Shown: piece by piece, positions 2,010 to 61,886 of the stretch
Layout of the letters: every line of letters begins with the position of its first letter
Position numbering within the stretch: the stretch's first letter is position 1
Notes under the pieces: generated by a model
The model's database searches: none
Seen by the model: the letters and a program-made list of their open reading frames with translations, nothing else
Told to the model about the DNA's origin: nothing
Position numbers and translations under genes: made by a program
Assembly (NCBI GenBank): GCA_964016885.1
Contig: OZ024745.1
Location: forward strand, 78,616,001 to 78,680,000
Source: Eledone cirrhosa
Lineage: Eukaryota
Direction of reading: 5' to 3'
DNA: 64,000 nucleotides

Positions 2010-3969
2010 ATGACTGAGCCACGCCCCCCAGTGATATGTCGGCTGTCGTGCGACAACGACGTAGAAGTTGAGAGGAGCGCTACAGCGAAATTAACACAAA
2101 TTGATAACACAAACACCACCACAAACAATGTAAACAAAGACACCAATGATACCAATGAGAACTCTAATTTTGAAAAAAATGACAGTAACAGTGACAACGA
2201 AAATACAGATAACAAAAAAAAAATAACAAATGCAACAACAATATCAACACCACTAACATGAAAACAAATAGCGACAACACCAACACCAACAATACCAACT
2301 GCACCGAGAACAACGGTGGCAACAAAGACAACAATGATAACAGCGACAGTGCTAACAACACCAACAAGAACAACGACAACGACAACAACACCCCCAACGA
2401 AAACAAGAAGAACACTTTCGCTGCGGCAGCAGCAAAAAAGAGGCCATGCTTCAACATGGACCTCTCAAACAAAGATGAAAAGTTGGCCCAGCCATGGAAG
2501 CTCATCAGACAAGAGCAAACTTGGGCCAACTTAACTGTCCCAGTAGAAGCTATTGAGGAAGTGGAGCGCAGAACGGTGCATTATAGATGCATCTCAGCAC
2601 AAACCAAAAGGGCAGCTTTAATCCCACAAGAAGATGTCGAAGTCACGCTGAGGTGCATCAGTGAAGACACCGAATACATAGAGAGGGGCAGACAGTACGG
2701 CACCATTTCGGTGTTGTTCAAGTCAGAAGCCCTCGCTGTGAAACACGCTATGACTCCTTGCAAAGCCAGCAAGGTCATAATGTAACCCTGCCACATGGGA
2801 AAAAGAACGGCACGTCTCCGCATTCCCAGAATCCCACCAGGACTTGACATGTGCTGGCTTCTGGGATGTGTGATTGTGGAGGGGACGGATACCGTCCCTA
2901 TAGAAGTGACCAGAACGGCCAGAGAGGACTGGTCCGGGGTTGACCTGGAGATCCTTCTCCAGATCAGGCCCGAGAATGTGAAGACAATCCCGGCCCACAT
3001 CCGCCTTCAGAATGGGACGGTCATTCACATTATGACCGAAGGCAAAAGGCCGCAGTGTTTTGTTTGTGGGGAAAAAACCCATTTGCGAGCCTTCTGCCCT
3101 CAACTGCTGAAAGAGGCAAGGGGTCGAAAGGCTCCACTGCTGCCGACGCTGGAGCGAGGACCACAACCAGCACCGGCAAAACCACCAACAACAACACCAA
3201 TAGAAAGATCACCACCAACATTGACCACCCAGGGGGGAAACGAAGAAAGCTGTCAAATTCCCGCTCCCCCCAAAAATACACGCACCAATAAAACCATAAA
3301 CATACATACAGACACACTTACAGACACAGACCCCTATCTACCAGTAGTGAAAATGAGGGAAATCCCAAATCCCCCAAAATACAAAAAAGGAAACACAAAA
3401 AGAAACAAAAACTCAACAAAGCACAAAAGCACCCACAATAAAAAAAACGCAGACACCACCCACGCAAACATCTCTCCAATAACACCAACATCAACACCAC
3501 CATCACCATCATCCCCCAAACGCAAACAACTGAAACAGACGCAAGAACAAAAATATACACACAAACATCTGAAACCACAGACACCGCACTCACAACAAAC
3601 ACAGATACAACCGAAACAACACCACCAAAACCATCACCACCACAGCCACGCAAACAAATAAAATCACACCAACAAAACATACAAAACTTCGTGCTCGTCA
3701 GGAGGGCCAACAAGGAACTGATGGCCCTCGTAGCACGAAGTGAAAATATACAAAAAGAGGGGGAAATTTTTAAATCGAGCACATTTCGCGTGCCGGAAGA
3801 TTTGGTTCTGGTGCGAATGTCGCTCGACATATTCAAAGAAATACGAGACAGCTTGGGAACCCCGAACGTAAAACCCACTTCAAGACTTTTAAAGGGGTTT
3901 CCAAAAGAAACCCCACTAACTATGGAGGTCGAACAACCCGACCTTCACAAGATCCCGGAAGGTAAGTAA
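2010..3969 (+). pseudogene. Tx1/L1 ORF1 (gag-like, CCHC zinc knuckle), disrupted
   Basis: Pieces 2010-2261, 2258-2785, 2795-3661 and 3691-3969. CFVCGEKTHLRAFC = CX2CX4HX4C knuckle; N/T-rich and P/T/H-rich low-complexity tracts; internal stops and frameshifts. Confidence 0.8.
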
Positions 3970-4000
3970 ACCTTCCTCTCTCTCTTTTTATCCTGCCAAC

Positions 4001-7000
4001 ATGGCCGTATTAAGAGTAGGATGTTTAAATGTTCGAGGCCTGGGATCGTCCTGGAAGCAGGGGCACCTGCTCAATAACCTCAGGTCTATAGAAATGGATG
4101 TAATTGCAGTCAGCGAGACCAGGATTTCCGACACGCGCGCACTAGCCCCCATTTTCGACGACTATCAGATCTTTCCATCTGTTAGCCGGCCGGGAATGGG
4201 AGGCGGAGTGGCAGTGCTGTTTAGGAAAGGCCTGGATCTCGAGGTAAGGTCGATCTTCCGGGACCCGGACGGGAAGTTGGTGGTCCTGGACGTGAACAAT
4301 AATGAAGGTGGTGCCTTTAGACTGGTGGCCGTCTATGCTCCTACTGCGGCAGGACGGCCGGACTTCTTTAGACGCCTGGAAGCCTTTCTGGGTACGTCTC
4401 GCCCTTTACTGTTAGCGGGGGACTGGAACGGCATCTTAGACGCACGCTGGGACTGTGTGGGAGTATCCGATAGGAGCGGGGGGTGCAAAAGCCTCAAGAA
4501 CCTGATCAGCCAGTTCCAACTGTCTGACAGGTACCGACAAAATTTCCCTAATGCGCCAGTGTGGACCTTGGCTAACCGCATAGGGTCATCTAGATCGTAT
4601 ATAGGCAGGATATTCATTAGGAAACTAGACAGAAATAGTGTAAGCTGTCCACGTTTTGAAACGTTCGCCTATTCAGATCACAAGTTTGTGATCTGTATGG
4701 TCGACCTAGATAAGCCGCGTAGGTTAGGACCTGGTTACTAGAAGCTAAACATGTCATTTCCGGCACGTAAGGCTTACAGGGACCAGGTCGACAATTTAGT
4801 TAAGAAAAAGTTGACAGGGGGAATCGTAAACAATAGATGGTGGGGGGTTCTCAAAAGAGAGATTAGAGTAATGTCGATAGAGTTTAGCAAAGAAGTAGCA
4901 TTAGAGAAAAATAGAAAGGAGGGGGAGTTGGTAAATAAGTTAGACGAGGCTATTGTTAGTGGCATTGCAACTGATGTGCTAGCGGCGAGAATGGCATTAG
5001 ACCATTTCTTCAATGCGAAACACGAAGGTTGCATTGTCAGAGCTAAGGCGCGTGCTCTGAGAAACGAGGGAACCAAAGCTGTTCGATGGGCCCGCGTGGC
5101 AGAAGCGCAGCGTGGTAATAAAACTACGATTCGGTCTTTGACAGACCGAGACGGGCACGAGCTGAGCGATTCCAAGAGGATGTGTGAGGCCTTTCGCCAA
5201 CATTTTGCTCGGTTGTTCGGGGGAAGTGGCGGGTCAGAGATGGTGGCGGACTTCAGTCCCTACCTCGATGGCTTGCCACAACTCTCGACGGCTGACGCTG
5301 GGCGCTGCGAAAGACCAATTACTTCAGCCGAAATTCAGGATGCCCTTGTCGACTGCATGAGGCGCAAGTCACCCGGTTCGGATGGTCTGCCCTACGAGCT
5401 TTACGTAAATATGCCAGACTTGTTCTCCAATCTCCTCGAAGCCCTCTACTGCAACTGGCAGCAAAACGGGAGTATTCCCAGTTCTGTGAGCCGGGGCGTA
5501 GTGACGCTGATAAGGAAAGACGAGAACAAGAGGGACACATTAGACAATTTCAGGCCCATAACTCTGCTCAACACAGAGTTTAAGATTTTGGCCGTCGGGG
5601 ATTTGGTTGGGGAGGCGCAAACCAGGTCCATACACGACAACCTCCACCTAATGCGATACATCATAGAGAGGGTAGGGTGTAAACCTGGCTTCGGTGGGGC
5701 TCTGATCAATTTAGATCAATCGAAAGCATTCGATAGGGTCGACCATCGGTACCTGGAGGCTGTCCTCAAGGCAGCTGGCTTCGGCCCCGTCTTCAGAAGC
5801 TGGATCGCTGCAATGCACAGCGGCACCTGTTCGATGGTCAAAATTAATGGCCACCTCTCGGAACCGTTTCAGGTCTCCCGATCGGTCCGTCAAGGGTGCC
5901 CTCTCTCCTCCCTTCTGTACGTATTGACTCTCGAGCCTTTACTGCGGAAGCTGGAGCTGTTGCAGGGCATCCCGCTCGAACCGGGACGCGGAAAGGCTGT
6001 GTCGGCTTACGCGGACGACATCACCGTGATGGTGTCGGACACCTCAGAAATCGAGGTGGTCGGCAACATGGTGGAGGAATATGAAAGGTTGACGGGAGCA
6101 AAATTTAACCCGGAAAAGTCAGTGGGCTTGCAACTCGGCACCTGGAGAGGCAAGTCCATGCCGTCCAACAGCGTCGTTAGGCGCTGGACGGACGGACCGG
6201 TAAAGTTGCTAGGGGTTTGGTTCGGGTCAGACCTCCAGGTGGATAAGAATTGGGACGAGGTGACGAGCAGGGTAGTCAGTCTCACCCAGAAATGGGCTGG
6301 GATGAAGGTATCATTGAAAGGTCGGACGGAGGTGGCGAACGCGTACATCTCGTCCGTCATCTACTACCGTCTGACTGTCGTCCCTTGCCCCCGTTCGCGC
6401 CTCGCCATCTTGGAGTGGCTCCTCTTCAAATTCTTGTGGAGGGGTCAGGTTCCGCTGGTGAGGCGGTCCATCTGCTGCCAGCACCCTCTACGTGGAGGGC
6501 TGGGCATGCCGTGGCTAATGATGCGCAGGCACGCGCTGAGGCTGCGGCATCTCCAGATATTCTGCCTAAACGGTGAACAGGTGTGGTCGCCGTTTGTCAG
6601 ACGGGCCTTTCCGCAGCTCGTTTCTTTGACTGAGTTGCAACCTGGGTCAAGAAGAGACCGAGACTGGGTGACTGGCATCTGGAATGTTGCCAGGCACTCA
6701 CTGCCCTCTGCCAGGCGGGCAATGCGGTCAGTGGAACTTCCACTCTCGAGTTCTATAGAGGATTAGTGGTGGGCAAGTGCGACGACGCACTCGGAGAGGC
6801 TCTGGGAGTCAACGAAGTCGAACTAACCAGTCTGTACCGGAGGACTTTCGAGCCGGGGACGATGGATAATTTCCAAAAATGCCTCGCTTGGCAGTGCTAG
6901 CGGGGGGCACTGCCGGTTCGAGATAAACTCTACAGGCACGGAAGTGCTGTCAGACGGACCTGCCCAAGACGCGCGCAGAGCGACGAAACCGTTCTGCACG

Positions 7001-9386: not shown

Positions 9387-9688
9387 TTGATAGTTTGTAT
9401 AATTTTGTATAATTTTGTACATAGATCTGTTGAATATGCATAACAATTCTAACACATATATGTCCTAGAAACGATCGTTAAATAATGAACTTTTTTTGTT
9501 TAATATAAGGAACTGTTTCATTGTTTTATTCATTATTTTTTTAATATTTTATCTTGACTCTGTATTCCGTTTATCTTTCACCGAAAGTGATTTTTGAATG
9601 CATCTCTTCTTTCCATGATATCCGGATTACATTGAGTTCTTCATACGGATTGGACACTACCGTAAACTTTTGGTAGATTTATCTACAT
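9387..9688 (+). mobile_element. 3'-terminal pLTR fragment of the Naiad-type PLE (diverged copy)
   Basis: Aligns with about 48964-49257 and 55157-55452. Starts inside hammerhead stem II and ends ATCTACA-(TA)n. Confidence 0.9.
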
Positions 9689-10530
<842 letters not shown>

Positions 10531-14353: not shown

Positions 14354-15328
14354 AAGATTGAAGAATAACATGGTCGGCTGTACAACAAGGGGCTTTATTT
14401 CAAGTATTAACAATTGTGTCATTGATCAGGTGAGTCTAAAGGCCGCTAATCATTCGAAGTTGCGTCACAAGACCCTATATACAGTGATTACCTCTGACCA
14501 AATCCTCAGAATACTAGAGAACTCACATATGGCAATGGTATATATAAAGATACAGCGTAGAATCAAAACAATAGCATCAATAATAAAATATAATGATAAA
14601 TAGGTAAAGAAGTTACAGATGTAAAAAGTAAAAAAAGTTTTAAAAATAAAGAAATAGAAAATAAGTAAACGTATATAAGTACAGAATACAATAGTTGATA
14701 ATAGTGGTGGTGAGTAAGTGTCTGTATAAGGATGTGGGGGTGGAAGTAGTACTAACATGAAAAGCAATATTCGATACATACATACGTGTAGAGAGTAAGA
14801 GGTAGTAACAAATGACAGATAAAAGAAAAAACAATAAATTAAAAATTGAGAGATACGAGCATGAGACATAAGGGCTAAGGATGGATGGGGAAGGGAGGTG
14901 TTGATATGTGTGTGTAATATTTGGCCTTCTGATTGTCTTATCTTAATGGGATTGATGTGGCTTCAGGGAGAGAGTGTGAAAGAAAGGTTAGATGTATGAT
15001 CTAGTGACCATTCGATTAGTTGACAGCTAATAACAGTGTGGTGGTATGTATTCCGTACGTTAAAATTCGGGTGATTCAGTTCGAATTTTGCGATTGCTGG
15101 GTCGAATCATGGTGGTTTGAAATCTGTGAACTTGGTAGCTGCTTTGGGCCTACAGAAAATTGATCTTTCTATTTTGTTGTTAAGCAGCATCTTATCGTAC
15201 CTTAAAATATGGAATAGCTCCATATTGCAAAGTCCGCAGTGGGACATTCCATTGTGTAGGCCCTTGCTCCCGATAATTTTGACCAGCTAATCCTATATTC
15301 CTGGTTTGTGTTCTTAAGCTGCCAGATT
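14349..15328 (-). mobile_element. 5'-truncated second Naiad-type PLE (ORF C-terminus + 3' UTR)
   Basis: Minus-strand 15328-15108 translates, with one frameshift, to IWQLKNTNQEYRISWSKLSGARAY/NGMSHCGLCNMELFHILRYDKMLLNNKIERSIFCRPK..FKPP*. This is colinear with the C-terminus of ORF 49410-51851 (YDLTWGVLKRATPY..CRLCSQELFEI..LLNKRQE..C). The element ends at (TA)n; the extent of the UTR is inferred. Confidence 0.75.
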
Positions 15329-39665: not shown

Positions 39666-41390
39666 ACATACATATATACCCACACGTACATACATCCATA
39701 CATCCCTACACACATATATGTGTGTGTCTCACCGTTTACTCAGATATTCATGTGTATACATAAGAAGGGGGGGGGGTAGTGAAATGGAATTTTACCTCCG
39801 AGTGTTAATTCATTTTTTCGTGTTCAGTAGTGGTTTAAATTTTTCAATGAAGAATTCTTCTTTATATCTGCGGAAATGTTCGTTATCCGACCATATCTTG
39901 AAGAAAGGGAAGATTGTGAATTTTCCCTTCCTGCATGATGCAAAGTGTGCGCTACATGTGGTATTTCTGACTGTGGGGTCTTTAATTTGTTGTTTATGTA
40001 CCCGGACTCTATCATGTAATCCCGTTCCGGTTTCCCCAATGTAATACTCTTTACACTGTGGACATGTTGCGCAATATATTAGGTTTTTCGTTTTGCAGTT
40101 CATGTTAGCATTGACCTTGAAATTATCATGGTTTTTGAAGGACAACTGTTTGCCCTCTTCAATGAGTTCACAGGTTCCACATCTAGGGTCCCCGCATTTC
40201 GTCACTTGCATTGATTCCATATTGGTCGTAAATTTTGCCTTGGTAATTAGTTTTTTAAGGTTGGGTGCTTGGCGTCTGCTATAAATTATCTGTGTGTTTT
40301 TTAAGAGTGCATTCATTTTGGTAGATTGCTGTAGAATCGGGAGATACTGCTTAGCAGTTTTCACAATGTTGATGTTCCCTGGGTTGTCAGTGATGACAAA
40401 AGAGATAGCAGGGTTTTCTTTTTTATGTTGTGGGTTTGGTTTTCTCAGTGTTGTTATTGGGATGTTCTTAGCCTTGGAGATGGCTGCGTTGATGAGTTTC
40501 ATCGGGTATTCTTGTTTTTTAAGGAATTTTTTCAGGTCACATAATCTTTTTTCTTGTAGTACGGGTTGTGTTGCTATAGTGCAGATGCGCCTTGCCATGT
40601 TGAAGGGAATGTTCCTTTTCGTATGTGAGGGGTGTGCTGACCGGAAATTTAAGTATTGGTGTGTGTCAGTGGGTTTGGAAATAGGTCCGTTATGATATTT
40701 TCCCCTTCTTTGATGATGAGGATATCTAGAAAGGGCAGTTCCTTTTCGTTACATTCCATAGTGAATTGTATAGCTTCATGAAGCCTGTTTAGGATCGAAT
40801 AAAATTTGTGTAGGTCTGTTTGGCTTCTGTTCCAGAAGATGAAGCAGTCATCTAGGTAACGTTTCCAGTTTTTATTAATGTATTAATGTAGAAGGCGAAG
40901 TCGTGACTGAATGTTATCTGTAGTTGGGAATATAATTTTGCCTCTAAGTGACCCATAACGAGCGTTGCATATGTAGGGGCCACTTTGTTACCCATGGCTG
41001 TTCCTTTTATTTGTAGATAAAGTTCGTTGTCAAAGAGGAAGTGGTTGTTTTCCAATACTAATTTAAGTCCTTCCAAGATGAATTCTTTGGGGAATCTTTC
41101 TGAAATGTGACTTGAGTGTTTTGTAATCCAGAAGTCCACAGCTTCAATCCCTAGGTCGTGTGGGATGTTAGTGTACAGGCTTATTACATCAAAACTGACT
41201 AGGATTGTATCCTGGTGTACTTTTTGGAGGATATAGTTAAGGAATTCCATATCATCTCTGATGTAGCTTGGAACTTTTTTACATAGGGGTTTGAGTATGA
41301 TGTCTAATAGGTTGCTTAGACGTTGTGTGTTTGAGGCTGGGCCAGCAATAATGGGGCGTAATTTTAAGTCTGTCGGTTTTGGTGCTTCGA
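37875..41390 (-). mobile_element. 5'-truncated Penelope-like element (Neptune-like) with microsatellite-rich 3' region
   Basis: Coding relic 41390-39810. The downstream CA/TA tract and a unique end with CCCTATATATAG plus a degenerate hammerhead-like motif near 38050-38085 are assigned to the element by inference. Confidence 0.7.
39810..41390 (-). pseudogene. PLE reverse transcriptase + GIY-YIG endonuclease, frameshifted
   Basis: LRPIIAG, VSFDVISLYTNIPH, GTAMG, RYLDDCF (40843-40863), LPFLDI, CGDPRCGTC linker, NLIYCATCPQC..YIGETG..RVRVH, LN. Frameshifts near 40880 and 40680. Confidence 0.92.
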
Positions 41391-41527
41391 TATATTCGAT
41401 ATATTCGATATATTCGATATATATATATATGTGTGTGTATATATCTATATATATATGTATATCTATATATATATATATGTGTGTGTGTATATATGACACT
41501 CATATAAGTGTTCATTCATTAATAAAT

Positions 41528-42319: not shown

Positions 42320-42401
42320 ACTCCAACTAATTAGTTTCTGTATGGGGACAAATATAGTTACATAATATAACTATAGAGAATTCCATACGTCATCAGGGAG
42401 T
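42320..42401 (-). ncRNA. Type I hammerhead ribozyme with extended stem II
   Basis: Minus strand: ACTCC CTGATGA C GTATGG..TATAGTTA tattatg TAACTATA..CCATAC A GAAA CTAATTAG TT GGAGT. It lies in a TA-flanked island of about 42146-42465. Confidence 0.85.
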
Positions 42402-42963: not shown

Positions 42964-42983
42964 GTATGTATATATATATATGT

Positions 42984-43723
42984 ACGTTATTCCGGGTTGA
43001 ATCGGAGGTAACCACAGTAAGTAAGGTACTCAATACATAGCAGAGTATAAAAGTTTTAATATAGATGAGATTCTACAGGACTAGAACTGTTTCATTCATT
43101 AGAAATCATCAGGAATCTGGGTATCAAAAAATAAATATGGTATTTATAGGTCTCTACAAGTGGTAGGAGAGGGTGGGGAGTGGGATGGGTGCAGGTCATT
43201 GGTTGATAGAAAAGGGAATTCATTAAAAGCTAATTCTACAAAGCTATAGTTTATTTTTATTTATTTATGTTTTTAGAGTAACAAGGGCAGACAGAATTCT
43301 ATAAACAGGTTCCGGATGGCATACCATTCCTTGTCATTAAGTTTCTCTTAAGCTAACAGATGTCTATAAAATCAGTGGGGGGTCAGTCATGGTCGATAGA
43401 ATTAAAGAAAAGGGAGATTCTTTAAAAGCTAAAATCATTAAGGTTCTACTAAGTGACAAAGGTCTAGAGAATTCTGCAGACAGATTCAAAATACTGAGTG
43501 CATATCTTACTATTATCTTCGAACTTCTCTTAAACTAATCAACTATATGCCAAAAATCAACAGACACATTCACAAAAAAACAAAAAAACACATACTCACT
43601 CACACACTTACGCGCAACCATAAACACACACACAGACACATATACACACATAAAAACACACACACATATATAAAAATATATATTCATGTACACACACATA
43701 CATACACACATACATACATACAT

Positions 43724-44397: not shown

Positions 44398-44439
<42 letters not shown>

Positions 44440-44507
44440 GTTATTCCGGGTTGAATCGGAGGTAACCACAGTAAGTAAGGTACTCAATACATAGCAGAGT
44501 ATAAAAG

Positions 44508-44563
<56 letters not shown>

Positions 44564-44631
44564 CTTTTATACTCTGCTATGTATTGAGTACCTTACTTAC
44601 TGTGGTTACCTCCGATTCAACCCGGAATAAC

Positions 44632-44681
<50 letters not shown>

Positions 44682-47206: not shown

Positions 47207-47247
<41 letters not shown>

Positions 47248-47292
47248 TAAACAAATAATGAACAAACAATTCCTTATATTAAACAAAAAAAG

Positions 47293-47447
47293 TTCACTAT
47301 TTAACGATCGTTTCTAGGGTATATATGTGTTATAATTGGTATGCATATTTAACAGATCTATGTACAAAATTATACAAAATTATACAAATTATCAAGATTA
47401 AATATACATACCTAACTCATATATACGCCGTCTTCAGAAATAATGAA
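47293..47447 (-). ncRNA. Hammerhead ribozyme (inverted pLTR copy)
   Basis: Reverse complement of 48912-49066. Confidence 0.8.
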
Positions 47448-48224
47448 GTATATTTATTGATAATAACAACAATTCAAAATATCAGTTCAAAATTGACCAA
47501 TGAAAACACAAAGGGTTAAAAAGCAGTTTGGTGTGTGTATATACATGTAAAACCCCACACACATTTTACAATAATGTGTGTATAATTTGTATGTGCATAC
47601 TAAAAAGATGGATGCAAATAAAAAATTTCAAGGTTAATATCTCTGTAAGCTTAATGCGCTGATAAGATACGCAATGATACTTATGGAGTCAAGCATATAA
47701 ATATATTTTTTTCATACTCACACATATCAGTATAATCACACATACATGTGCGTATATATATAAATATACACATAACCACGAACACACAAACACACACACT
47801 CCCCCACTCACATTTATATATGTGGATATAAAATCATAAGCAAATAGAAATTAAGTCACTTACATAAACACACTGGTACACACATTTCAAGATCAAGATA
47901 CAGAAATTAGGTGGGAGGGGGGGGGGGAGGGGTCAGTATTAAATTGTCAGACCAGACAGCCTAATATAAATGTATCTATAAATTATGAAAAATAAAAAAT
48001 AAAAAAATAAAAACAATAAAATATAATACATATAATATAATGTACATACGCATACAGATATACATACACATACATACATGTACGCGCACATAGAGATATC
48101 TACACATACATACATACACACGTACCTATACTTTCATACACACGCATACATTTACACGAACATACACATACACATATAAAAAGATATAAATACGGACACA
48201 CACACGCGCAACACATACACACAT

Positions 48225-48267
<43 letters not shown>

Positions 48268-48911
48268 TACATATATATATACACACACACATAGACTCAT
48301 ATATATATACATACACATACATACACTTATACACAAACATATATATCCCACACTCATACCACCATATTTTTCATAATTTATAGATACATTTATATTAGGC
48401 TGTCTGGTCTGACAATTTAATACTGACCCCTCCCCCCCCCCCTCCCACCTAATTTCTGTATCTTGATCTTGAAATGTGTGTACCAGTGTGTTTATGTAAG
48501 TGACTTAATTTCTATTTGCTTATGATTTTATATCCACATATATAAATGTGAGTGGGGGAGTGTGTGTGTTTGTGTGTTCGTGGTTATGTGTATATTTATA
48601 TATATACGCACATGTATGTGTGATTATACTGATATGTGTGAGTATGAAAAAAATATATTTATATGCTTGACTCCATAAGTATCATTGCGTATCTTATCAG
48701 CGCATTAAGCTTACAGAGATATTAACCTTGAAATTTTTTATTTGCATCCATCTTTTTAGTATGCACATACAAATTATACACACATTATTGTAAAATGTGT
48801 GTGGGGTTTTACATGTATATACACACACCAAACTGCTTTTTAACCCTTTGTGTTTTCATTGGTCAATTTTGAACTGATATTTTGAATTGTTGTTATTATC
48901 AATAAATATAC

Positions 48912-49066
48912 TTCATTATTTCTGAAGACGGCGTATATATGAGTTAGGTATGTATATTTAATCTTGATAATTTGTATAATTTTGTATAATTTTGTACATA
49001 GATCTGTTAAATATGCATACCAATTATAACACATATATACCCTAGAAACGATCGTTAAATAGTGAA
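48912..49066 (+). ncRNA. Type I hammerhead ribozyme with 116-nt stem II domain (5' pLTR)
   Basis: Stem I TTCATTATTT/AAATAGTGAA; CTGAAGA; stem II helices GTATATATG/CATATATAC and GGTATGTATATTTA/TAAATATGCATACC; GAAA-CGATCG-TT. Predicted cleavage after 49056. Confidence 0.8.
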
Positions 49067-49409
49067 CTTTTTTTGTTTAATATAAGGAATTGTTTGTTCA
49101 TTATTTGTTTAATATTTTATCTTGACTCTGTATACCGTTTATCTTTCACCGAAATTGGATTTTCATTACATCTCTTCTTTCCATGATATCCGGAATACAT
49201 TGAGTTCTTCATACGGATTGGACACTACCGTAAACTCTTGGTAGATTTATCTACATAATTTTGCTCCTATTTTCACGGAAATATTCGTATTTTTGTACTG
49301 TATGTGTGTATTAATTTTATATTTATGTATAAACATATATATATGTATGATTTTGTAAACCCATATACATTTAGTTGAGCTCTTTCAATTGTCCATCATC
49401 CATATCACA

Positions 49410-51851
49410 ATGGAAAAACAATATTTAGGAACCTCCTTAAAAAACATACCAATACCTTCTAAGGACGACTTCTTACTCCTTATGATTCAGAAAACTAATA
49501 ATTTTATCAGAAGGGTTAGATGGAGAGCCTACCACTTTGATAGAAAATCTAAACAAGCAGATCGGAAATATATGTATGATTTCAATACTTACAAGAATCC
49601 ACCACACAACTTTTTACTTGAAGACTTCGAGAAAGACCTTTTTAATTTAATTAAACACCTCAAATTTAAAAAGTATAAATCAGTCTTTCAAAAGGACCTT
49701 GATTCTACCCTATTGGACCTAAAAAAGTCTAAAAAAATCCATGTCCACTCGGACAAAACTGGTAACTTGTATCATATGGATATTGAACATTATAATGAGT
49801 TCATATATAAAGAACTCAGAAAAAATTATAAAAAATCTAATAATGCGTCACTCACCAACATCAACAACAAAACACACAACATAGTAAAAAAACTAAATAT
49901 TGAAGATAGAACTGAACCTTTGGCATTGAGAAGTCCACACTTCAACCTGAAAGATCACAAATCTAACTTTAACTCTAATCCTTCTATTAGACTTATATGT
50001 CCCTCCAAATCAGATATTGGAATAATTAGCAAAAAAATTTTAGATAGAGTCATCCCACAAATAAGAAAATACGTTATTTTACCACTCTGGGAAAACACCT
50101 CCCAGGTAATTAATTGGTTTAAAAATATTAGGTGTAAATCTTCTGCTTCTTTCCTACAGTTTGATATAGATAATTATTATTCTTCTATATCACCCATACT
50201 CCTGAACAAAGCATTAATATTTGCTAAAAATAGATCTAATTTAACTTCGGATGACATTAACATTATTACACATGCTAGACAAACACTTATTGAATTTCAG
50301 AATGAATACTGGACCAGAAACACTTATAGTAATCTTTTTGATATTACTATGGGTTCAAGCGATTCTGCCCAAATTACTGATCTTGTGGGCCTCTTTCTCC
50401 TTTTCAACATAAATGCCTCTTTTCCCCACCTCAAAGGTGGTTTATATCGTGATGACTGTCTTCTTCTTTCTAACAACCTTAGCCTTTCAGAAATCGAAAA
50501 AAACAAAAAGCATATTAGAACTTTCCTTAAAGACTATTATAATCTTAATATTACTTTTGAAAAAACAAGTAAAGTAGTAAATTTCCTAGATATAACTTTA
50601 GATTTAGCTACGGGTATATACCAACCTTACCATAAACCTAACCAAAACTTACATTACATACACTCACAATCTAATCACCCTAAATCTATCCTTAAAAACC
50701 TTGCATATAATATATCACTTAGAATTTCTAACCTTTCTTCTAACCAAGATGTATTTGATAAAAATGCGACCTTTTATAATGAAGCTCTAGATAGAAGTGG
50801 CCACAAAAATAGATTAGAGTATATACCTTCTACTAAAAATACTGAAAGCATACAGCATAATATTACCAACAAACACCAAATGAAAAGTACACACCTAAAT
50901 GCCACCCACAGTATACCCCAAAATACTAAATCTTCTAATATAAAGTATAGTAACCCTCAAAAAACTACTCATCATAAGACTATAATAAATATTAATAATA
51001 AAACTCCTAATAAAAAAGATAAAACATCTAAATCTACAAATATAACTAAAAATAGTTGTGGTGAGATCATTAACATTATTCCTCCTAGTAAAAATCATGA
51101 TACAACATATAAAAATAATAAAAATAATAAACAACATAGAAACCGTAATAGACGAGTTACTTGGTATAATGCTCCTTTTAATTTACAAGTTAAGGATAAT
51201 ATTGCTAAAAAATTTTTTTATATCCTTGAGAAAAACTTCCCGCCAAACCACAAATACCATCAAATCTTAAATAGGTCTACAGTTAAATTCTCATATTCTA
51301 CAACAAATAACATAAAACAAAATATAAGTGCATATAATGCATATAAATGTAAGAAAACTATAAGTATACCACCAGTACATCAAATTAACAATAATATCTC
51401 CTCAAATACAGAATTAACGAAAGGATGTAACTGTAGAAACAAAACAAACTGCCCATTAAAAGGGAATTGTCTTGTTAACAACATAGTCTATAAATGTAAT
51501 GTTAAAACTAAAGATTCTATTTGCTCATATATAGGAGCTACCTCTAACAATTTTAAGACAAGGTATAATACCCACAAACATAGCTTTAAAAATGCCGCAC
51601 TGGCTAATACAACATCTCTAGCAGAAAAAATCAATAGTTATAAAAATAAAAATATAAAATATGATTTGACCTGGGGTGTGCTCAAAAGAGCCACCCCTTA
51701 TCAAAATAATAGAAAGGAATGTAGATTATGTTCCCAAGAACTATTTGAAATAATGAAGTCTAGGGATATCTTATTAAATAAAAGACAGGAATTAATTATA
51801 TCGTGTAATCATAAACTAAAAAAAACATTTAAATATTATAAACCTAATTAA
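49410..51851 (+). CDS. Naiad-type PLE polyprotein, RT + GIY-YIG endonuclease, 813 aa, uninterrupted
   Basis: SLKNIPIPS..RVRWRA N-terminus, SDKTGNLY, LKDHK..RLICPSKS, QFDIDNYYSSI, DITMGS, LYRDD, VNFLDI, SNHP, TWYNAPF, CNCRNKTNCPLKGNC, IVY..YIG..FKTRYNTH, CRLC..E, LLN. First ATG at 49410. Confidence 0.93.
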   Translation: MEKQYLGTSLKNIPIPSKDDFLLLMIQKTNNFIRRVRWRAYHFDRKSKQADRKYMYDFNTYKNPPHNFLLEDFEKDLFNLIKHLKFKKYKSVFQKDLDSTLLDLKKSKKIHVHSDKTGNLYHMDIEHYNEFIYKELRKNYKKSNNASLTNINNKTHNIVKKLNIEDRTEPLALRSPHFNLKDHKSNFNSNPSIRLICPSKSDIGIISKKILDRVIPQIRKYVILPLWENTSQVINWFKNIRCKSSASFLQFDIDNYYSSISPILLNKALIFAKNRSNLTSDDINIITHARQTLIEFQNEYWTRNTYSNLFDITMGSSDSAQITDLVGLFLLFNINASFPHLKGGLYRDDCLLLSNNLSLSEIEKNKKHIRTFLKDYYNLNITFEKTSKVVNFLDITLDLATGIYQPYHKPNQNLHYIHSQSNHPKSILKNLAYNISLRISNLSSNQDVFDKNATFYNEALDRSGHKNRLEYIPSTKNTESIQHNITNKHQMKSTHLNATHSIPQNTKSSNIKYSNPQKTTHHKTIININNKTPNKKDKTSKSTNITKNSCGEIINIIPPSKNHDTTYKNNKNNKQHRNRNRRVTWYNAPFNLQVKDNIAKKFFYILEKNFPPNHKYHQILNRSTVKFSYSTTNNIKQNISAYNAYKCKKTISIPPVHQINNNISSNTELTKGCNCRNKTNCPLKGNCLVNNIVYKCNVKTKDSICSYIGATSNNFKTRYNTHKHSFKNAALANTTSLAEKINSYKNKNIKYDLTWGVLKRATPYQNNRKECRLCSQELFEIMKSRDILLNKRQELIISCNHKLKKTFKYYKPN

Positions 51852-53696
51852 TAACATTATTCTAGAATTTAATTTAATTTAAATGTTAGTTAACCTATAA
51901 ATTTAATTTAATTAATATTTTATTACAGATGAGTAAATATTATGTAATCATTAATTTTGAAAAACCTTTAAATATTACTAATATATATTCAGTAATTTAA
52001 TTTATAGATTAATTTTAACTTATTTTAACCTTTTATTATAATTTTTTAATTTAGTTTAACCTTTTATTATAATTTTTTTTTTATTATAATTCTTTTACAG
52101 ATAAAATATAACAAAATAATATCATGTATCCTATGACGGAGATAGAATTTTTAGTATTATTGACCTAATTAATATACATTTTGGAAATATATTTATTATT
52201 TGGTTTTAGCTTTAATCAACCTAAAACTTTAATTTTAATTTTAATTTGCTTAAAATTAGTATCCTTGTACAGACGAATTGCAGAATGTCATGTAATCATA
52301 GAATGGGAGGTGTTTTTGGATATATACCTAGTTAATATATTCTGTGCAAATTTTTTGAAAAAGATATGTATATCTATATGTATATGTATATGTGTGTGTT
52401 GTATGTGTATCTGTATGTATATTTATGTGACTATATATGTATGTATGTGTATATATATGTATATATATATATATATATGTGTATGTATATGTATATGTAT
52501 GTGTATGTGTATGTATATGTATGTGTGTGCGTATTAATTTTGATTTTTATTTGCATATAATTATATTATGCTATTGATGAAATACAATATCTGCTTTATG
52601 TATTGTATACCTAATTAACATATACTAATTAACATATACTATTGAAATAAATATATAATTTTTAACTTAGTTAACATATAATTTATATGCTACTACCGAT
52701 GTAATACTTTATTTTATTTTTATTTGGGTTTCTTTTCCCTATTACTAAATTCATCTCCTAATATTGATACCATAATGTTATTAACTTTAATTTAGTTATA
52801 ATGTAATTAATAATCTACTACTGTTTGACTTCATAATTCTGCTTCAAATATTATAAACCTAACTAATTTACACCTTGGAAATCAATATGTTGACTATCTT
52901 TGGTTTAGTTGACATATGATTAATGGTATACTTTTTTATTTTGTGATGCATAGATTTCGTATTTCCTAGCACTGTAAATATGTGGGAACATACATTGAAT
53001 TAAGATATGGAAAATATTATATGTTTCTTGAAACTTATATTTACTTTGATCCCCTTCTCCAAACCCCCCCTTTCCCCCATACTATTATCATCTGTTTTTG
53101 TAAGTGTATATGTATGAATATATGTGTAGATGGGTGTCTATATAGTTTTTTTTGGTATTTATTTCTAAATATAAAAATACATATATGAGCATGTAAATAT
53201 GAATGTAAGATTGAGTGTGTATATATGATTGTACATACATATGTATGTATATATATGTATATATATATATATATTATATATGTACGTGTATGTGAATGTG
53301 TGGTATGTATATGTGTATGTGTATGTATATATGTGTGTGTATGTGTATGCTTGTATATAGGAATATATATGTGTGTATATATGTATATATATGTATATGC
53401 GTGTTTGTATGTATGTGTATATGGGTTCTGTATATATTTGTATGTCTCTCTATTTATATGTTTATCTTCGTATCTATGTGATATATGTGTGTGTGTGTGC
53501 ACGTATGCATATGTATGTGTTTGTGTGTGTTTGTATGTGTGTGTGTATATATATATATGTATTTGCGCACACTCACATACACATATATATATATATATAT
53601 ATATATGTGAGTGTGTATGTGTGTCTGTGGGTGTGTGCGTGTGTGTATATGTGTATATGTATATATATGTGTATGTATGTGTATGTGTGTGTATAT

Positions 53697-53736
<40 letters not shown>

Positions 53737-53871
53737 ATATAGGTGTCTATGTGTGAATATATGTCTTTATTCGTATGTGTGTATTTATATATGTTTATAT
53801 TTAGGTGTATGTATGTATGTGTATGTATGTATGTATATGTATGTATATGTATATATATGTGTATATGTGTG

Positions 53872-53908
<37 letters not shown>

Positions 53909-54123
53909 CTTTATTATTATTGTAATATAACTTATGTGTATATGTGTATAAGTGAGGTTGTGTATGTATATATACTATGTGTATATATAAGGGTAATGAA
54001 ATATATATATATATATATATATATATGTGCATGTCTGTATTTTATGTGTGTGTGTGTATATATATATGTGTATGTGTGTATATGTGTATGTATATATACA
54101 TATATGTGTACGTGTGTGTATGT

Positions 54124-54168
<45 letters not shown>

Positions 54169-54287
54169 TGGATGTTTGTATGTGTTTTTATGGTGGTATG
54201 AGTGTGGGATATATATGTTTGTGTATAAGTGTATGTATGTGTATGTATATATATATGAGTCTATGTGTGTGTGTATATATATATGTA

Positions 54288-54330
<43 letters not shown>

Positions 54331-55104
54331 ATGTGTGTATGTGTTGCGCGTGTGTGTGTCCGTATTTATATCTTTTTATATGTGTATGTGTATGTTCGTG
54401 TAAATGTATGCGTGTGTATGAAAGTATAGGTACGTGTGTATGTATGTATGTGTAGATATCTCTATGTGCGCGTACATGTATGTATGTGTATGTATATCTG
54501 TATGCGTATGTACATTATATTATATGTATTATATTTTATTGTTTTTATTTTTTTATTTTTTATTTTTCATAATTTATAGATACATTTATATTAGGCTGTC
54601 TGGTCTGACAATTTAATACTGACCCCTCCCCCCCCTCCCACCTAATTTCTGTATCTTGATCTTGAAATGTGTGTACCAGTGTGTTTATGTAAGTGACTTA
54701 ATTTCTATTTGCTTATGATTTTATATCCACATATATAAATGTGAGTGGGGGAGTGTGTGTGTTTGTGTGTTCGTGGTTATGTGTATATTTATATATATAC
54801 GCACATGTATGTGTGATTATACTGATATGTGTGAGTATGAAAAAAATATATTTATATGCTTGACTCCATAAGTATCATTGCGTATCTTATCAGCGCATTA
54901 AGCTTACAGAGATATTAACCTTGAAATTTTTTATTTGCATCCATCTTTTTAGTATGCACATACAAATTATACACACATTATTGTAAAATGTGTGTGGGGT
55001 TTTACATGTATATACACACACCAAACTGCTTTTTAACCCTTTGTGTTTTCATTGGTCAATTTTGAACTGATATTTTGAATTGTTGTTATTATCAATAAAT
55101 ATAC

Positions 55105-55259
55105 TTCATTATTTCTGAAGACGGCGTATATATGAGTTAGGTATGTATATTTAATCTTGATAATTTGTATAATTTTGTATAATTTTGTACATAGATCTGT
55201 TAAATATGCATACCAATTATAACACATATATACCCTAGAAACGATCGTTAAATAGTGAA
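55105..55259 (+). ncRNA. Hammerhead ribozyme (3' pLTR copy)
   Basis: Same sequence as 48912-49066; predicted cleavage after 55249. Confidence 0.8.
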
Positions 55260-55452
55260 CTTTTTTTTTGTTTAATATAAGGAATTGTTTGTTCATTATT
55301 TGTTTAATATTTTATCTTGACTCTGTATACCGTTTATCTTTCACCGAAATTGGATTTTCATTACATCTCTTCTTTCCATGATATCCGGAATACATTGAGT
55401 TCTTCATACGGATTGGACACTACCGTAAACTCTTGGTAGATTTATCTACATA

Positions 55453-57171
<1,719 letters not shown>

Positions 57172-57321
57172 TGTTATACTTTGGGAGGGTCATGCCAATA
57201 AGAAACACACGCACCAGTTGCTCACTTCAATTTAATTTAATATATATTTATAAATTTACAAATTTATAAATTTCTGGTTGGTTGGTTGGTTCCACAACCA
57301 GATAGTTGTTTATATATATAT

Positions 57322-57366
57322 AGTCATAGTTCTTTCGTCACACACTCTGTGACCTCTTCAGTGACT
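57322..57366 (-). ncRNA. Minimal type I hammerhead
   Basis: Reverse complement of 58336-58380. Confidence 0.75.
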
Positions 57367-58335
57367 GGGGATTTCTTTCTTCGTTTCTGTGCCTTTCCTT
57401 TCTTCTATCCTACGCCATTTTGTTTGTGTGTGGGTTGCGTGCTCAGTTTGCGCATGCGCCACATCCGGGTGTCTGTGTGTGTTTGTGTTCATTTTTCTAT
57501 TTTTATATTTTTTTATATTTATATTTGTTTGTTTATTTATTTATTTATTGTTGGTTGGTTGTTTGTTCTATGTGTGTGTGTGTTTTCATTTTGTCTTGTG
57601 TGTGTTTTCATTTTGTGTGTGTTTTCAATTGTAAGTTGTTTATATATGTGTGTGTGTGTTTTCATTTTGTCCTTAATTGTAAGTTGTGATGTTGCTGTTC
57701 CACTCATATTTTCTATTTAATTTTGGTTTTAATTCTTTTATGCTTACTGCCTCTGTAATTTGCCTAAACATTGCGTCTTTCTTGTGTGTGGATTCTATTT
57801 TTATTTCTATGCTCTCTAATTTACCCCTGTGTTCTATCTTAGCATGTTGGTAGAGCACAGATGATTCTTTACTATCTTGGAGGTCTCGCCAGTGTTCATT
57901 TATTCGTTCCCCTATACTACGAGCTGTCTCACCTATGTACACTATATTTTTGTTTCTACATTGTCCCTCAGTACATCTTATGCTATATACTACATTTCTA
58001 GTTTTACAGTTAATATGGGGGCTTATTTTACAGGTTATACATTTCTTATCTATACATGAGGGTCTTTGGAACGGGTATGTCTTGCTAATAAGTGTTTTTA
58101 CGGAGGTACCAGGTCTTTCTACTATCTTAATATTGAGATTATGTTTCTTTAGGGCCCTTCTAAATTTGTAGGCTAGTTCACCTCTAGGGGTTGTATTGAT
58201 GAACATTACACTCTGGTATTTATTGCTATCATACCATGAGTTTATTCTATTGGCCTTGTTCTTAGTTCTTTCTATGCAAACAAAATGGCGTAGGATAGAA
58301 GAAAGGAAGGCACAGAAACGAAGAAAGAAATCCCC

Positions 58336-58380
58336 AGTCACTGAAGAGGTCACAGAGTGTGTGACGAAAGAACTATGACT
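58336..58380 (+). ncRNA. Minimal type I hammerhead
   Basis: AGTCA CTGAAGA G GTCAC agagtgt GTGAC GAAA GAAC TA TGACT. Confidence 0.75.
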
Positions 58381-58622
58381 ATATATATATAAACAACTAT
58401 CTGGTTGTGGAACCAACCAACCAACCAGAAATTTATAAATTTGTAAATTTATAAATATATATTAAATTAAATTGAAGTGAAAGCAACTGGTGCGTGTGTT
58501 TCTTATTGGCAACATGACCCTCCCAAAGTATAACAATATCGGTTTCAACACACGATTTCAGATAAAGAATCTTGCTAAACAAATTCAGAAACGAAATATA
58601 TATATATATATATATGTATATG

Positions 58623-61886
<3,264 letters not shown>

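Follow-up and report, generated by a model that had tools for sequence, protein, structure and literature searches.

The role of hammerhead ribozymes in Penelope-like elements (PLEs) is still debated, and a 64,000-nt stretch of Eledone cirrhosa DNA (contig OZ024745.1, positions 78,616,001 to 78,680,000 of the forward strand; hereafter the window) contains a hammerhead whose stem II forms a very long arm. This raises the questions of which element carries such a ribozyme, how the arm came about and whether an RNA of this architecture could still cut itself. The motif, assigned here to a family named F1, lies in the upstream pseudo-LTR of a PLE at 48912-49066(+) and was characterised by a scan of both strands, folding and covariation analysis. 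Stem I pairs 48912-48921 with 49057-49066 (10 bp, one U·G), the core consists of CUGAAGA at 48922-48928 and GAA at 49045-49047, and the 116-nt stem II domain (48929-49044) is closed at its base by C48929·A49044. Stem III is formed by the palindrome ACGAUCGU at 49048-49055, the triplet is GUU, and the predicted cut falls between 49056 and 49057. Identical hammerheads were found in the downstream pseudo-LTR (55105-55259(+)) and in an inverted truncated copy (47293-47447(-)). Together with one member of a second family, F2, at 42320-42401(-), which has a 51-nt stem II domain, a C·A closure, the palindrome ACUAAUUAGU and GUU, these three 116-nt copies make up the four whole type I hammerheads detected in the window. 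A preliminary description of this DNA had placed every one of these traits of the two motifs at 48912-49066(+) and 42320-42401(-) correctly.

F1 is a type I hammerhead motif and a predicted self-cutter. Both F1 and F2 contain CUGANGA, GAAA, A15.1-U16.1, an NUH triplet, the type I order and three stems; their folding z-scores are -5.7 and -3.1, respectively. The R10.1-Y11.1 pair that closes stem II is replaced by C·A in both, and next to it F1 has a G·U, A-U or G-C pair, and F2 has G-C. No match to the Rfam hammerhead families was obtained for either motif at E up to 10, and among the matches listed for an Rfam scan of the whole window only microsatellite hairpins were present. The earlier expectation that length-limited searches would overlook such motifs was borne out, in that Rfam misses both scanned motifs and their arms exceed a published example descriptor (stem II of up to 7 bp plus a 10-nt loop, with optional extra N10 and N11; PMC4209133).

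A further copy at about 9389-9689(+) belongs to an F1 subfamily with a 114-nt domain and retains only the 3' half of the hammerhead: its 5' break lies inside stem II, and both CUGANGA and the 5' strand of stem I are missing. A change in stem I from U·G to U-A had been proposed for this copy near 9470-9489. Whole members of the same subfamily do carry the change, but the copy itself has no 5' stem I strand in which the pair could form, and the change is one-sided.

The element that carries F1 had been called a Naiad. Naiads have been described as having an N-terminal endonuclease, DKA in place of DKG and, in the available text of Craig et al. 2021 (PMC8557442), no canonical hammerhead. The element in the window contradicts this definition in domain order, in the RT motif (SDKTGN, that is, DKT and not DKA) and in its complete hammerhead core, and the assignment was rejected. 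The intact ORF at 49410-51851(+) encodes 813 aa with the RT first and, at the C terminus, an endonuclease of GIY-YIG type (motifs RWR, DKT, CxCX5C, CxxC and CxH). It is preceded by the upstream pseudo-LTR (48365-49257(+)), which shares 99.4% identity with its downstream counterpart across 895 columns, and followed by an AT-rich 3' untranslated region of about 2.7 kb (51852-54560(+)) up to the downstream pseudo-LTR (54561-55452(+)), which ends in (TA)n. An inverted 5'-truncated copy, consisting of the end of the 3' UTR and a pseudo-LTR (47240-48366(-)), ends in (TA)n at the +198 site, counted from the ribozyme core. The whole insertion is thus ordered as inverted truncated copy, pseudo-LTR, ORF, 3' region and second pseudo-LTR, with (TA)n on both sides.

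These features place the host element in the Hydra clade of PLEs, for which RWK, DKT, a CxCX5C linker, CxxC and CxH around conserved E and N residues, and no CCHH have been described (Craig et al. 2021, PMC8557442). The single ORF has the C-terminal GIY-YIG endonuclease (IVY...YIG, R, E, N), DKT is present, RWR differs from RWK by one conservative change, and the linker and endonuclease cysteines (CNCRNKTNC, CRLC, CNH) occur without CCHH; D115, K116 and N119 are invariant in 40 relatives of the protein. Insertion into (TA)n was observed at both ends of the window insertion and at most 3' ends of copies. The published Hydra reference proteins agree with the 813-aa ORF in a comparison made by eye only. 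The unit measures about 6.06 kb, as judged from the spacing of genomic matches, and exceeds the generally <3 kb of published Hydra elements, a trait that is descriptive and not diagnostic. Pfam gave no match for the 813-aa protein and recognised GIY-YIG in 3 of the 40 relatives, so the endonuclease assignment rests on motifs; a sequence search against solved structures returned no match. Between the RT thumb and the linker, the protein has a low-confidence insertion of ~100 residues rich in N, K and T, which is absent from most relatives (residues 477-573, its reliable coordinates; 49882-50128 was given for the region in the window). The F1 family is young, with an intact ORF and all of the top 40 genomic matches to the window copy 100% identical.

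Such hammerheads are abundant in the host genome (3.0 Gb). Exact patterns for F1 and F2 matched 11,120 and 10,850 times, and the reversed patterns did not match at all, which shows that the motifs are not due to chance. A third group, F3 (stem III ACAAUUGU, domain of 70-100 nt), gave 5,986 matches against 6 in the control, with closures in 30 distinct copies of U·U (11), A·A (7), C·A (5) and others (7), two or so of the copies probably being mis-parsed. One F3 hammerhead, overlooked in the preliminary description, lies in the window at 14403-14515(-) (82-nt domain, U·U, ACAAUUGU, GAAA changed to GACA in this copy); it follows a Hydra endonuclease fragment (15113-15256(-)) at a distance of about 600 nt. 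A 5'-side GUAUU and a 3'-side UAGAC recur in several diverged F3-group arms (e.g. loci L363, L370 and L381), possibly as a conserved loop motif.

A random sample of eighty evenly spaced 10-kb stretches (800 kb) contained 34 hammerheads, compared with none in the reversed control and none in five shuffles. As near-palindromy of stem III was a condition of the scan, the sample says nothing on that trait. The lengths of the stem II domains formed a continuous range of 12-116 nt; they were at least 49 nt in 12 of the 34 and longer than 26 nt in 26, implying that length-capped searches undercount hammerheads. The density of intact-core motifs was about 42 per Mb, and extrapolation gives roughly 125,000 motifs in the genome, about a third of them with arms of at least 49 nt. 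Many shorter families with an AUA triplet and stem III AUAUAUAU or AUGCGCAU were also present in the sample. Among the long-armed forms elsewhere in the genome, a separate 90-nt family with C·A and stem III ACAAUUGU lies downstream of a Hydra endonuclease (L365, L368, L383 and L384), and in a family with a branched stem II domain of 93-97 nt (L359, L373 and L387), the basal helix opens into a junction that carries two hairpins.

The preliminary description had regarded the long stem II, C·A closure, palindromic stem III and GUU as the joint signature of a distinct subtype. The recurrence of a long stem II in several families (arms of 48-126 nt) stands. The linkage of the other traits to it does not: C·A and GUU occurred in 8 and 9 of the 34 random hammerheads, long arms are also closed by U·U, A·A or A-U, and three of the six F1 copies in the random sample had GUA as their triplet. 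Since C·A recurs in three long-armed families (F1, F2 and the 90-nt family) and other closures occur too, it is a maintained variant but no mark of long arms.

Most of the individual traits are already in print: palindromic stem III, GUU, a mismatch at the base of stem II and, in one Chara element, C·A itself (PMC8557442, PMC4209133). Hydra-clade hammerheads resemble F1 in being of type I, located in the pseudo-LTR, with a near-palindromic stem III, a GUH triplet and a stem II base mismatch, and their elements share (TA)n targeting and the protein motifs with the F1 element. In the 26 Hydra rows of File S2 of Craig et al. 2021 (PMC8557442), U·U occurs in 14, GUU in 10 and C·A in none, and stem II domains reach about 26 nt, compared with the 48-126 nt found here; the F1 element, at about 6 kb per unit, is also larger than the published Hydra elements described there (under 3 kb). 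Minimal PLE hammerheads, for which Cervera and de la Peña 2014 (PMC4209133) described an extra base after A9, a palindromic helix III, a dimer proposal and low activity, share with the present motifs the extra base between A9 and G10.1 and the palindromic helix III. The example descriptor given there lacks stem III, whereas the motifs here have a palindrome of 8-10 nt and very long arms. Two plant elements of another clade come closest in single traits (PMC8557442, File S2): PLE-X1_cBra, the Chara element, has the exact C·A closure with a palindromic stem III, and in PLE-X1_sMoe the stem II domain, flagged in the file as deviating, measures about 50 nt; neither combines both traits or approaches 116 nt. 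No published report of 80-126 nt arms in PLE hammerheads was found in a literature search of incomplete coverage. The apparent novelty lies in the length of the arm, in its occurrence in several families of a single genome and in the footprints of copies described below.

An outside comparison was made with 77 Hydra loci from metagenomes, of which 38 had a motif and 39 had none. Arms measured 10-25 nt in 36 of 37 distinct motifs, and C·A did not occur; a 105-nt arm in one locus was antisense and likely arose by chance. A long arm as a Hydra-wide trait was therefore not seen in the motif-bearing metagenome loci (38 of 77); since the other 39 gave no motif, long forms may also occur elsewhere. 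In a tree of 49 endonuclease fragments (three dropped, with an intervening TA run), rows from the host genome formed one group (support 98/92) apart from the metagenome rows. This tree, which is short and midpoint-rooted with long branches, includes no other PLE clade and contains a row (L075) that is probably unlinked to its hammerhead, so it is read only as compatible with an expansion inside this host lineage. The distance from endonuclease to hammerhead was 423-1,554 nt in the retained fragments of the host genome (about 3,250 in the window) and 53-524 nt in the metagenome loci.

Covariation in stem II, which had been named as a check on the proposed fold, was found in both F1 and F2. For F1, 20 of 34 cluster-representative-level sequences were used, chosen for diversity and mostly intact ends. 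Compensatory changes occurred in stems I and II; 93.8% of 874 cells were paired and 27 were double-change cells, and neither value was reached in any of 500 shuffles, while slid-structure controls gave 21-60% paired. Weaker measures that count pairs or pair types were equalled in 30 and 317 of the 500 shuffles, respectively. Because these two measures are weaker and the rows are related, the result is taken as support and not as a significance test. The domain ranges from 99 to 126 nt, partly through gains of a 10-nt repeat. One subfamily has swapped its whole basal helix (GGGUAGU with ACUAC-Y-C) and kept the core and the apical GAUA-N-UUUGUA / UACAUAGAUC segments. Column conservation was 0.97 in the core, 0.95-0.97 in the apical segments and 0.84-0.86 in the basal helix. 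Variation of the catalytic core across the subfamilies is confined to N7 and N17, position 17 being either U or A in the alignment. Inspection by eye revealed no stem I-stem II pseudoknot in F1.

The shorter F2 arm, in which a basal helix of 6 bp is followed by an internal loop and a cap hairpin, was analysed in the same way and showed 96.0% of 372 cells paired over 19 variants, with 52 double-change cells and one pair with all four Watson-Crick types. C·A was present in 23 of 23 distinct copies, although the search pattern left the closure free, and the domain length is held at 48-55 nt. A candidate pseudoknot joins GAGAA just 5' of stem I to UUCUC in the stem II internal loop; its support comes from two columns, one with G-C changed to A-U in 4 of 19 rows and one with a double change in a single row, and 75% are paired over seven pairs. 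Such a pairing would restore the usual contact between stem I and stem II. It resembles the Watson-Crick contact between the flank of stem I and the stem II region in pseudoknotted hammerheads (Perreault et al. 2011, PMC3088659), with the difference that in F2 the partner sits in an internal loop of a long, capped arm; part of the pseudoknot analysis in that study left out repetitive type I motifs. In L047 and L057, F2 also occurs as tandem non-coding units (about 535 bp), every one of which contains a type I hammerhead, an arrangement that it shares with non-LTR retrozymes (PMC7229834; bioRxiv 10.64898/2026.07.22.740005). F2 differs from these in its long arm, PLE-type inverted pairs and (TA)n ends. 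No link of F2 to a Hydra ORF was found; the nearby fragments in L047 and L057 do not follow the order of ORF and then ribozyme.

Several explanations of the arm can be weighed on this evidence. A rather unlikely one is that it is a tolerated passenger, stem II length being nearly free, so that the arm grows by slippage in an AT-rich genome and must only stay folded off the core. The continuous 12-116 nt range in the random sample, the variable number of 10-nt repeats, the enlargement of the whole non-coding part and the free variation of the stem II closure between families would all agree with it, but unpaired loop bases are invariant across diverged subfamilies, and F2 has a fixed length, a fixed C·A and a candidate pseudoknot with double changes.

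The preliminary description had suggested a handle for RT binding or packaging. The conserved F1 apical loop is compatible with such a role, and in a stronger form the GAUA-N-UUUGUA / UACAUAGAUC loop would recruit the protein, which would license both folding and cutting and mark the RNA for copying. The higher conservation of the apical segments than of the replaceable basal helix would favour a dedicated handle of this kind, as would the presence of conserved loops of their own in the arms of other families and the published protein-assisted cleavage of a PLE ribozyme (PMC11167929). However, arm sequence, length and branching are wholly different between families, and Hydra elements elsewhere work with arms of 10-26 nt. 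The RT-binding region of the Anolis element, the first 172 nt of its ORF, comprises stem II and sequence beyond it in the accessible part of that report (PMC11167929) and so does not single out the arm. We regard the dedicated handle as doubtful.

Further information comes from where genomic copies begin and end. Matches number 15,164 for the F1 3' half, 11,120 for the whole core and only 5,675 for the AATAAA lying 15 nt further up, the three patterns not being strictly nested. Among position-ordered F1 copies, 10 of 30 begin 3-8 nt before the core, most of them at -7 (48915(+) in the window), and several of these are two arms of one insertion. Some 3,000 genomic copies start at this point, which has TCA-TT and, a few nucleotides upstream, AATAAA; genome-wide, 3,189 F1 copies have a non-templated base at -8. 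At 30 inspected loci with such a junction, the adjoining upstream AATAAA or sequence was kept in none, and some copies join GC-rich DNA. Insertion into an existing pseudo-LTR was not supported as the cause of the -7 junction: only 3 of 30 loci had upstream parts nearby, and these did not adjoin. None of five distinct ORF-bearing copies started at -7. Several F3-group copies likewise begin at the ribozyme, as do a few F2 copies (about 3 of 28). A peak of copies starting at the cleavage site was not found: only 76 copies in the whole genome are without U16.1 ahead of the 3' strand of stem I, and about 18 of 30 inspected begin at the cleavage site or within stem I, many by stem I microhomology. 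In some copies (L432, L433 and L418-L421) the terminal 10-13 bases have been re-copied in short tandem series at the 5' junction, as expected of an RT slipping at the template end. Certain short F1 copies (L423 and L427-L431) are joined at their 5' end to one and the same other repeat ending in GTAGAAACA via ATT microhomology, and the ATT tail of another repeat was used at 6 of 30 inspected -7 junctions.

At the other side, 3' ends are fixed at +198 and +335 from the core, which delimit a 137-nt tail (49120-49257(+)). Many head-to-head pairs have one arm from -7 to +335 and one from -7 to +198, and the large window insertion ends at the same two points. Since copies begin at -7 and end at two fixed points, it is likely that the ribozyme stands at the start of the template RNA and that this RNA is copied without having been cut, and the two 3' ends would mark two internal RT start sites. 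These footprints fit the findings on Anolis Poseidon (Frangieh et al. 2024, PMC11167929), in which RT starts internally at two sites on an uncut RNA template and cleavage is assisted by the protein, which the ribozyme requires; two 3' points defining a tail and an AT-rich target are also shared. The tail there is 30-40 nt, compared with 137 nt in F1, and the available text of that study reports no fixed 5' end before the core.

The build of the element, its hammerhead core, the covariation of the arm, the number of copies and the fixed -7, +198 and +335 points of the short ones lead us to the following course. A discrete 5' end of the F1 RNA very probably lies 7 nt before the core. The simplest option, a transcription start at TCA-TT within the pseudo-LTR, seems about evenly poised between right and wrong; TCA-TT at this point is initiator-like. 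No excess of G was found at -8 (675 of 3,189, or 21%, equal to background), so there is no cap signature for a transcription start. An internal promoter in the pseudo-LTR has been described for Drosophila Penelope (PMC2377424). A poly(A)-type cut after the conserved AATAAA and an RT stop or fold-back at stem I are each unlikely, and equally so. Reverse transcription then quite probably begins within the RNA, at +198 or +335, with priming on (TA)n DNA, and proceeds along uncut RNA as far as that 5' end, which would yield the head-to-head pairs.

Folding predictions bear on how cutting might take place. The F1 monomer has a 2-bp stem III (probability 0.25), an alternative UUUCU/AGAAA pairing can tie up the core (probability 0.29), and addition of 50-300 nt of flank reduces the stem I probability to 0.0, the arm being predicted in all cases. 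With a 2-bp stem III and a stem I that is not predicted in the presence of flanks, a cut would likely depend on a second copy as partner, on folding during transcription or on the protein. The active dimer is predicted at -98.0 kcal/mol, about 15 below a pair of active monomers (-83.2), but another dimer fold has the lowest energy (-100.6) and lies 2.6 below the active one. It is more probable than its opposite that a lone ribozyme, with its 2-bp stem III and C·A, is weak and that two copies pair via ACGAUCGU into an 8-bp stem III and cut after GUU or GUA. Such a cut would strip the ribozyme-bearing 5' end from the message or trim tandem transcripts. That the motif no longer needs to cut, its fold surviving as a structure of the 5' end (for promoter function, stability or an RT stop) and its catalysis silenced by C·A and the UUUCU/AGAAA pairing, is very unlikely: integrated copies derive from uncut RNA, inactive folds compete and cleavage is dispensable in vitro for the Anolis element (PMC11167929), but the core varies only at N7 and N17 across subfamilies, and natural hammerheads with a mismatch at this place (U10.1-U11.1), which is also known from axolotl hammerheads (PMC7229834), have been reported to cut (PMC3088659).

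F1 is thus probably the hammerhead of a young Hydra PLE pseudo-LTR whose stem II has grown into a long paired arm and which is likely to cut only as a dimer or with the aid of protein. The arm would consist of a basal helix of canonical length whose loop is capped by added helices; it may have grown along with the enlarged non-coding part, in part by 10-nt repeat gains, with selection keeping it paired. The conserved internal loops may provide a stem I-stem II contact (the F2 pseudoknot) or a protein site (the F1 apical loop), a suggestion that we place slightly short of even. More speculative, and quite unlikely as a whole, is the view that the giant-arm ribozyme is the 5' end of the RNA, that its loops act as an RT-binding switch between copying uncut RNA and cutting, and that this class belongs to the Hydra elements of one host lineage and goes unseen by current models. 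If true, the -7, +198 and +335 footprints would be a ready map of the PLE retrotransposition reaction, and tens of thousands of motifs per genome would be invisible to such models. F1 combines a single core with naturally varying stem II lengths and closures, and the start points of the RNA and of RT are recorded in its short copies, which makes questions about the 5' end and about control by protein directly testable.

The window also contains other repeats. A degenerate PLE of another clade at 39810-41400(-) has RT and GIY-YIG fragments, with a linker of the form CxxxxCxxC and an endonuclease core that contains two cysteines, and remains of a non-LTR retrotransposon at 3920-6766(+) include an AP-type endonuclease (PF03372) and RT (PF00078) in successive frames. 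A perfect 194-nt palindrome lies at 44439-44632; its arms match 42983-43066 and 58764-58837, and it possibly consists of head-to-head ends of another repeat. An inverted repeat of about 260 nt, 97.7% identical, is formed by 57172-57426 and 58277-58535.
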